Assembly: GCF_022846255.1 (NCBI RefSeq)
Contig: NZ_AP025682.1
DNA: 64,000 nt
Source of the DNA: Escherichia coli
GTDB lineage: Bacteria; Pseudomonadota; Gammaproteobacteria; Enterobacterales; Enterobacteriaceae
Strand: one strand, 5' to 3'
Shown: positions 21,835 to 21,918 of the stretch, piece after piece
Numbering within the stretch: position 1 is the first letter of the stretch
Layout: every line of letters starts with the position of its first letter
Notes under the pieces: generated by a model
Database searches by the model: none
What the model was told of the DNA's origin: nothing
The model's input: only the letters and a program-made list of their open reading frames with translations
Position numbers and translations under genes: made by a program

Positions 21835-21918
21835 TTATCCCCAGCGACAAATTGAATACAAAACCAGTGCTACCGCCATTGCAATTCCTACCGTTGCGAA
21901 TGCTTCAGGCCAGCTCAT
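21835..21918 (-). CDS. candidate 27-aa hydrophobic peptide
   Basis: MSWPEAFATVGIAMAVALVLYSICRWG; start overlaps the stop of the upstream gene (ATGA). Confidence 0.2.
   Translation of the reverse strand: MSWPEAFATVGIAMAVALVLYSICRWG

Follow-up and report, generated by a model that had tools for sequence, protein, structure and literature searches.

A small open reading frame predicted to encode a 27-residue membrane micro-protein at the end of the Ea22/DUF551 array of Escherichia coli prophages

Introduction

AcrZ, MgrB, MgtS and SgrT are examples of bacterial small membrane-protein regulators, which comprise fewer than 50 amino acids (aa), carry one hydrophobic helix with almost no soluble part and are missed by annotation. 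The same description applies to the predicted product of a small open reading frame (ORF) of 27 codons, located on the minus strand in a prophage within 64,000 nucleotides (nt) of Escherichia coli DNA from contig NZ_AP025682.1 (hereafter the window, meaning this whole stretch). This small ORF, the subject of the present work, is unlike the above regulators in being unrelated to them in sequence, borne by phages, devoid of a promoter of its own and coupled to an upstream gene. Comparison with other genomes indicates that it is very probably a real, translated gene, and it would represent a so far uncurated family of micro-proteins, found in E. coli, Shigella and Salmonella phages of the lambdoid and P1-like types. 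Larger membrane proteins are the targets of bacterial small membrane proteins (reviewed in PMC12648545).

Toxins of the Hok/Gef family are, like the small-ORF peptide, small hydrophobic membrane peptides encoded on prophages, and in many phages they lie physically adjacent to it, with hokW of phage 933W located ~210 nt downstream of the small-ORF stop in that phage. However, no Hok_Gef match, Sok-like antisense RNA, mok-type leader or fold-back mRNA is evident for the small ORF, its 27-aa product is without the periplasmic domain of Hok, and it is located on the upstream side of the hok promoter and is found in the absence of hok as well. Conversely, 19 hok loci bear no trace of the small ORF, which therefore does not belong to hok/sok. 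Lambda Kil, Rac KilR, Qin DicB and lambda CIII resemble the small ORF in being small, delayed-early, dispensable and variable between phages, with expression expected upon induction. These proteins are, however, soluble or amphipathic and act on FtsZ/ZipA, MinC or FtsH, whereas the small-ORF peptide is unrelated to them and predicted to form an integral membrane helix. BlyA, described as a holin-like small membrane protein that releases latent ClyA, is phage-encoded as well, judging by the title of its report; the small ORF differs from BlyA and holins in lying outside the lysis cassette and in being far smaller than holins. The proteins that share array and operon with the small ORF are the Ea22, Ead_Ea22 and DUF551 proteins of the exo-xis region (PMC10834534, PMC7093339). 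From these it is set apart by forming a cistron of its own, of 27 codons, that resembles none of the Ea22 domains, and these two Ea22 papers do not mention it.

Results

The small ORF and its translation signals

The small ORF opens with an ATG that overlaps the stop codon of a 214-aa gene of the DUF550/DUF551 type, as had been proposed in a first-pass annotation of the window, and its minus-strand reading from 21918 to 21835 is ATGAGCTGG…CGCTGGGGATAA. It is defined by three features:

21835..21918, minus strand: small ORF, 27 codons plus TAA, encoding MSWPEAFATVGIAMAVALVLYSICRWG
21915..21918, minus strand: ATGA start/stop overlap, in which the small-ORF ATG (21918..21916) shares bases with the TGA of the 214-aa gene
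21923..21931, minus strand: Shine-Dalgarno (SD) sequence AGGAGGTGA, 4 nt before the ATG and within the last codons of the 214-aa gene (…PQEVNQ*)

Such an ATGA overlap is the usual arrangement for coupling by termination and reinitiation. The encoded peptide has a short acidic N-terminal end (W3-P4-E5), a hydrophobic helix of 17-19 residues with G11xxxA15, and the terminal sequence Y21-S-I-C-R-W-G. Over its best 17-residue stretch, residues 7-23 (FATVGIAMAVALVLYSI), the mean Kyte-Doolittle hydropathy is 2.23, which by prediction suffices for one membrane-spanning helix and bears out the single transmembrane (TM) helix of the first-pass annotation. The tails outside this predicted helix amount to 4-6 residues only, with 4 residues in the C-terminal tail.

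Of the 116 mechanical ORFs in the window with a length of 100 aa or more, 19 have an ATGA-overlapping start at their end. Four short ORFs (25-41 codons) other than the small ORF also begin by such an overlap, and their hydropathy maxima are at most 0.94 as against 2.23 for the small ORF. The bare small ORF is thus within chance expectation, and hence the case for it rests on comparison with other genomes. A consensus scan of the window revealed no promoter-like site adjoining the small ORF, Rfam yielded no family within 19000..24000 at E values up to 1, and the local RNA fold at the small ORF is not unusual (z-score of 0.2).

Conservation of the frame and purifying selection

A degenerate pattern fixing codons 1-5 and 22-26 at the amino-acid level led to 120 viral contigs, which together with the loci collected earlier provided 128 copies with 57 DNA alleles and 34 peptides, nearly all of 27 codons. 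The ATGA overlap is present in all 128 copies, a constancy that is partly forced because codon 2 is AGC or ACC. Over codons 6-21, which the pattern leaves free, the ratio of nonsynonymous to synonymous substitution rates (dN/dS) is 0.35, as compared to 0.81, 1.07, 1.50 and 1.97 in four of the five other frames. The fifth, a reverse frame, has a dN/dS of 0.26 and was rejected as coding, since stops interrupt it in 37 of the 57 alleles and its low ratio is a wobble-coincidence artefact. An antisense ORF of 41 aa (21822..21947, plus strand) that covers the small ORF is open in 55 of the 57 alleles; it was also rejected as a gene, because a dN/dS near 2 marks it as a by-product of the composition of the sense gene.

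A pattern-independent sample was anchored on the sequence just downstream of the small ORF, ahead of hok. Its 39 alleles gave a dN/dS of 0.33 for the whole ORF (bootstrap confidence interval 0.18-0.69), with 0.21 for the ends only and 0.44 for the middle only, and ten deep pairs among five lineages ranged from 0.13 to 0.52. Integrity of the frame was counted only on loci brought in by the anchor scan alone. The canonical small ORF is present in 60 of the 67 recognisable copies, and the remaining seven represent five alleles, namely two with a W3R missense change and one each with a GTG start, a 1-nt deletion and a nonsense mutation. Hence 31 of 33 alleles (~94%) retain an open frame of 27 codons. 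Length variants in the databases are in-frame as well and arise from AM or AV dipeptide expansions; in P0025 and P0028, such expansions lie inside the helix (MTWPEALTTVGIAMAMAMAMAMAVALVVYSICRWG) and lengthen the membrane span by 4-8 residues.

Purifying selection thus appears to be specific to the frame of the small ORF, as no other open frame shows it. The conservation in related prophages on which the first-pass annotation had made its proposal depend is indeed found, with the frame kept in hundreds of prophages.

A gene-sized module at the end of a mosaic array

In a search with 211 nt around the locus, many matches extend from the ATG (query position 73) to the stop (156 or 157) and no further, the flanks being unrelated, and in these alignments the small ORF behaves like a gene-sized module. 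What follows it among the 128 copies is correspondingly diverse: the hok/sok promoter region in 933W and EDL933, hairpins with T-run terminators directly after the stop in other phages, a DUF4222 gene starting 4 nt past the stop and followed by xis and int, a convergent RelE/ParD pair or, in the window, a cargo of PACE transporter and LysR genes.

On the upstream side, two cassettes lead into the small ORF. One reads …CAGGAGGTGAATCA-ATGA, with the protein end …QEVNQ*, and carries the SD sequence; the other reads …GGAGGATATTTTACG-ATGA, with the protein end …EDILR*, and carries an SD sequence 8 nt before the ATG. SD sequence and ATGA are hence retained behind unrelated upstream genes. In the loci compared, the small ORF always adjoins the last gene of the Ea22/DUF551 array, and the upstream proteins in other phages are all members of this mosaic Ea22/DUF550/DUF551 array. 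Proteins of the array have been described as having portable C-terminal domains (PMC10834534). In other prophages, array and peptide form part of the rightward early region, flanked by the replication genes and Q, and they move as a unit between operons on the pL side and the pR side.

Distribution and annotation status

With the 84-nt ORF, matches were obtained to 1,769 records from 1,707 of 5,426 complete E. coli genomes, at 3,292 places and up to 7 times per genome, and the ORF is full-length in 1,706 of the genomes (~31%), with a coverage of at least 80% in 1,768 of the 1,769 records. By tblastn it is found in 93 phage records, among them 933W, VT2-Sakai, Stx2 phage I and II, Min27, BP-4795 and the P1-like Salmonella phage SJ46. 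It is also present in 180 plasmids (154 from E. coli, 25 from Salmonella and 1 from Klebsiella), of which 174 are non-mobilizable and the inspected ones are of ~95 kb. A scan of one genome per species with a strict codon pattern returned only Escherichia sp. and a 369-bp 'Acinetobacter' contig, and the close family is therefore essentially confined to enterobacterial phages. The latter contig (JQCU01000559.1, 'Acinetobacter idrijaensis') carries an allele of E. coli P1-like plasmids with identical flanks and probably reflects contamination of the assembly.

As the first-pass annotation had supposed, the small ORF escapes gene callers, being unannotated by PGAP in all RefSeq loci inspected. One GenBank phage record has a coding sequence at its site, for a frameshifted copy, and the exact 27-mer has been deposited by a few submitters as 'bacteriophage protein' or 'hypothetical protein'. 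No match to the peptide occurs in the Pro-SMP finder supplement, and a literature search with peptide strings such as WPEAF and SICRWG returned chance matches only, mostly in crop and plant-pest papers.

Divergent homologues and natural fusions

A 27-position profile, whose first row was a 39-aa read-through variant, was searched against 1.84 billion representatives, with 58 matches at E values of at most 1e-3 and 18 at no more than 1e-10. Many database entries of 40-87 aa are the frame of the small ORF extended by gene callers back into the upstream gene, and truly divergent homologues include MNITNWPEAFTYIGCAFAIAIIFYSMFRWG, MTWPDAFAIVGVVCAVAWLLVQICKLP and MSWPEAFNNVGIALAIAIVFWALLK. In a set of 20 diverse members, W3 and G11 never vary, while P4, A6 and A15 are each retained by at least 90%; the 22 close variants show no change at G11 and A6, and at least 90% of them have A15. 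The family consensus can be written M-x-W-P-[ED]-A-F-x-x-V-G-x-A-x-A…aromatic…basic end. It is this residue motif, and not the DNA, that homologues at 40-55% amino-acid identity retain, and divergent metagenomic homologues are found in tight operons of small phage-type genes, where they overlap the stop of the preceding gene.

No family in Pfam, NCBIfam, PHROGs, PADLOC or PDB covers the peptide. Weak matches to KdpF (E value 0.024), PTR2, phrog_4612 (E value ~0.02) and a designed TM domain (E value 0.43) are those of a generic helix and were rejected as homology.

In one lineage, the peptide is fused in frame to an Ea22-like protein (…PDLPPLESNK-MSWPDAFAIAGVAMSIALIVFAICRWG; P0037), as seen on six contigs from several sequencing runs, and a second, diverged fusion protein is P0040, so that fusions account for 2 of the 58 representatives. 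The fusion operon has the order DUF4752, Ea22-like::TM, DUF4222, xis and int. In metagenomic prophages, the fusion proteins are of 143 and 206 aa (L229, 4001-4432; L230; L231; L232, 156-776). Such fusions tie the peptide to the Ea22 array, and from their sequences the helix would be usable as a C-terminal tail anchor. An exact-sequence cluster with 121-aa 'DUF551' proteins was rejected as a further fusion, since those proteins are the upstream gene.

The prophage in the window

The following features surround the small ORF:

21641..21655, minus strand: weak candidate terminator of the leftward operon, located within the 3' end of the convergent LysR gene at a distance of ~180 nt beyond the small ORF
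21915..22559, minus strand: upstream partner gene of 214 aa, with Pfam PF04447 (dATP/dGTP pyrophosphohydrolase, former DUF550; 6.4e-42) and PF04448 (DUF551; 2.4e-9)
22556..22927, minus strand: Ead/Ea22-like gene of 123 aa, Pfam PF13935 (1.2e-21)
26521..27273, minus strand: CI-like repressor with helix-turn-helix and S24 peptidase, Pfam PF00717 and PF01381
27316..27546, plus strand: Cro-like gene, divergent from the CI-like repressor

The 214-aa gene, named by PGAP in an identical strain, is the last member of the mosaic array in this prophage. The Ea22-like gene is itself ATGA-coupled to it (22556-22559) via the cassette GGATATTTTACG-ATGA, and the same cassette leads directly into the small ORF in other phages. 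In its general form GGA(G/T)GATATTTTACG-ATGA, this junction is thus reused, joining the Ea22-like gene to the 214-aa gene here and an Ea22-like C-terminus to the small ORF elsewhere, and it looks like a recombination joint between array modules.

Leftward from the repressor, an unassigned 96-aa ORF (25719..26009) is followed by gam, bet and exo, then by three small ORFs and a TraR/DksA-like gene, and lastly by the Ea22-like gene, the 214-aa gene and the small ORF, with Pfam support for Gam (PF06064) and exo (PF09588). The CI-like repressor locus marks the expected site of a leftward early promoter, which would also drive the small ORF. The first-pass annotation had placed the small ORF at the last early-left gene. 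This stands insofar as the small ORF closes the Ea22/DUF551 array; it does not stand for the strand as a whole, since the PACE transporter gene, two small ORFs (55 aa and 114 aa) and torI follow on the same strand beyond the convergent LysR gene. A terminator consensus scan identified 3 sites versus 2.1 expected, which is not significant. At 21803-21833, starting 1 nt past the small-ORF stop, lies an AT-rich hairpin (GATGAT, 12 nt, ATCATC) with A7 after it on the minus strand and T7 before it on the plus strand, and it forms no canonical terminator either way.

TorI (19260..19460, minus strand) is 100% identical to TorI of K-12 and adjoins dsdC (18131-19072, plus strand), and the prophage hence occupies the CPS-53/KplE1 site; its early region is unlike the yfdR-yfdS-yfdT remnant of K-12. 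The cargo between the small ORF and the prophage end consists of a PACE/AceI-type biocide efflux gene (20267-20725, minus strand; Pfam BTP, 2.8e-44), named 'multidrug/biocide efflux PACE transporter' by PGAP in the identical strain, and a divergent LysR regulator gene (20829-21713, plus strand). A second efflux cargo follows replication gene P, namely an SMR/EmrE-type transporter gene (30182-30568, plus strand; PF00893, 3.4e-35), adjoined by an alpha/beta-hydrolase esterase gene (30627-31670, minus strand; BD-FAE, 1.5e-44). Two small biocide-efflux genes within one prophage are unusual. In NZ_LR778152.1, where the ORF region matches at 100% identity, replication gene P is truncated and lies directly beside gam, and exo is frameshifted, while in the window (25300-29900) exo is intact and the CI/Cro/O/P region is complete; the same early-left segment is thus present in prophages at different stages of decay.

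Discussion

Conservation of frame and length, purifying selection confined to this frame, and an ATG with SD sequence and stop/start overlap are what is expected of a gene, and the small ORF is, with high likelihood, translated. The explanation that we favour as a whole, and put forward tentatively, is that it codes for a 27-residue, single-pass inner-membrane micro-protein of the delayed-early class which acts via its helix. Transcription, translation, membrane insertion, topology, timing and target of the peptide are described below as we infer them. Being without its own promoter, the small ORF would form the final cistron of a delayed-early operon that includes the Ea22/DUF550/DUF551 array, and would be transcribed with it. 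This operon would be the leftward one under the CI-like repressor in the window and the rightward one between the replication genes and Q in other phages. Ribosomes finishing the upstream gene probably restart at the overlapping ATGA, aided by the strong SD sequence. With such an operon and coupling by reinitiation, the product would be expected mainly after infection or induction and in step with its upstream neighbour. The peptide would then insert in the inner membrane and work through its helix, whose small-xxx-small face (G11xxxA15, with A6) and aromatic or basic interfacial ends (W3-P4 and Y21…R25-W26) suggest helix packing, either on itself or on a helix of a host or phage membrane protein, whose activity might thereby be altered. 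A predicted single helix with minimal tails and conserved small residues is what characterizes small membrane regulators, and modulation by helix packing is a possible, still more tentative, mode of action.

Several observations weigh against this explanation. A dN/dS of 0.33 over the whole ORF reflects moderate constraint only, though this is usual for a membrane helix, and disrupted copies exist, with a nonsense mutation in POCJ13 and a frameshift in vB_EcoS-689R5, which makes the gene dispensable. No homologue is present in Rac, CPS-53 or Qin, the three K-12 prophages checked, and K-12 small-protein surveys are hence unlikely to have seen it. The ribosome profiling (Ribo-seq) supplements of the enterohaemorrhagic E. 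coli (EHEC) strains Sakai and EDL933 do not contain its sequence. The EHEC Sakai survey took only intergenic ORFs of at least 30 aa, a cut-off above the length of the 27-aa peptide, and absence from that survey therefore says nothing either way. The presumed leftward promoter lies ~4.6 kb from the small ORF in this prophage. The topology is ambiguous, since the charge distribution of the free peptide (E5 at the N-terminal end and R25 at the C-terminal end) predicts N-out/C-in, whereas fusion to an Ea22-like protein implies N-in/C-out. Finally, the present evidence does not tell a modulator from a toxin.

Some other product classes were rejected by inspection. A lipoprotein or Sec signal peptide does not fit the acidic N-terminal end (E5), the Y-S-I preceding C24 (position -1 is not G, A or S) and the three residues after the Cys, and an arbitrium-like secreted signal does not fit the acidic N-terminal end and the lack of a receptor gene nearby. 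Programmed frameshifting from the upstream gene was discarded as no slippery site is apparent at the junction, for which no dedicated scan was run. As for a holin or pinholin, the small ORF is located in an early operon, and not in a late lysis cassette beside an endolysin gene, in the window and the related loci inspected; its 27 aa compare with a typical 60-150 aa with a charged C-terminal tail, and no holin family of Pfam or PHROGs matches.

Instead of modulating a partner, the helix might serve a membrane-damaging or leak-inducing effector similar to Hok, TisB or a small holin, which would depolarise or permeabilise the inner membrane early after induction. The outcome would be either host shut-down or leaky cells releasing periplasmic and cytoplasmic proteins, and both the activity and such an outcome are considered unlikely. 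The peptide is indeed short and very hydrophobic, as in the general class of toxins or modulators to which the first-pass annotation had pointed, its ORF often lies directly beside hok/sok or RelE/ParD loci, and the annotation of Stx2 phage II likens neighbouring Ea22-like ORFs to the enterohemolysin 2 determinant of phage C3208. However, no antisense RNA or antidote is evident, judging from the lack of Rfam matches within 19000..24000 and of a conserved flank; because the flanks vary between contexts, no conserved antisense promoter travels with the ORF, and the antisense frame is unconstrained. A strong SD sequence with reinitiation coupling would amount to constitutive co-expression with the array, unlike the tightly repressed type I toxins, and neither a promoter of its own nor an unusual mRNA fold (z = 0.2) was found. 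Moreover, genomes carry up to 7 copies, in-frame fusion to a cytosolic Ea22-like protein is tolerated, the extramembrane tails are of 4-6 residues only, and Pfam, NCBIfam, PHROG and PADLOC contain no matching Hok_Gef, holin or other toxin family. Related to this is the idea that the 27-aa peptide, and not the Ea22-like proteins, lies behind the phage-borne 'enterohemolysin' phenotype (ehly1 of phage C3888 and ehly2 of phage C3208) through perturbation of the envelope. In a broader form, the peptide would always accompany the hypervariable Ea22/DUF551 array as a membrane effector and connect the lysis-lysogeny effects of the array with the membrane. Either form is regarded as a long shot. The idea is based on the location of the ORF near ehly2-like sequences, its translational chaining to the array and the Ea22-like fusion in one lineage. 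In Stx2 phage II the small ORF is 0.4-1.1 kb downstream of Ea22-like ORFs annotated as 'similar to phage φC3208 enterohemolysin 2 / enterohemolysin-associated protein'. Cloned phage ehly fragments reportedly release the latent ClyA cytolysin from E. coli, a result said to go back to Oscarsson in 2002.

HK97 gp15 and DicB exemplify small prophage proteins, located in the membrane or acting on it, that serve in exclusion, and a special case of the modulator would be a superinfection-exclusion or entry-blocking factor that binds an inner-membrane protein needed by phage DNA (ManYZ, PtsG or similar). Its character as a phage accessory gene, variably present at operon ends and near moron-type cargo, agrees with such a role, which is nevertheless improbable, since without its own promoter the small ORF would probably be silent in the repressed lysogen, where exclusion pays most, and PADLOC has no match. 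It is just as improbable that the peptide is a detached membrane anchor for Ea22/DUF551 proteins, with a tail-anchored Ea22-like state being ancestral or alternative and the helix now made from a separate, stoichiometrically coupled cistron that would still localise or regulate array products at the membrane. This is favoured by the in-frame fusions, which occupy the same operon position and are represented by P0037 on six contigs and by a second protein, P0040, and also by the constant adjacency and coupling to the last array gene and the mobility of array and peptide as a unit. Yet 4-6 exposed residues are too few for specific binding of a soluble protein, the C-terminal domains of the upstream partners are of at least two unrelated kinds, fusions, at 2 of 58 representatives, are rare, and no frameshift-prone site is apparent at the ATGA junction by reading, no dedicated scan having been made. 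Lambdoid mosaics keep short boundary sequences, and the small ORF sits exactly at module junctions, which would suit an 84-nt element kept as DNA or RNA (a recombination linker, a 3' untranslated region or a terminator-proximal element), or one in which translation alone matters by shielding the mRNA end from Rho and RNases. That no functional protein is made at all is, however, very improbable. Substitutions are biased to synonymous or conservative ones in the frame of the small ORF, the only other frame with a low ratio being interrupted by stops in 37 of 57 alleles; both frame and length are conserved, with in-frame indels. Homologues at 40-55% identity share residues and not DNA, no RNA family or unusual structure is found, and the downstream sequence differs between contexts.

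The micro-protein acting via its helix, which remains our preferred explanation, would belong to a known kind, that of phage-encoded small membrane proteins made by translational coupling. No concept is overturned by it, as conserved small ORFs are expected in prophages, and the small ORF illustrates what is omitted through the length cut-offs (30 aa) of annotation and Ribo-seq. If translated, it would be among the most widespread unannotated genes in E. coli prophages, being present in ~31% of complete genomes, often in multiple copies, and located in reference Shiga-toxin phages such as 933W and VT2-Sakai as well as in P1-like phage-plasmids. It would add a defined and easily testable member to the short list of phage-encoded membrane micro-proteins and, at the same time, provide a constant membrane-bound companion for the Ea22/DUF551 accessory array.

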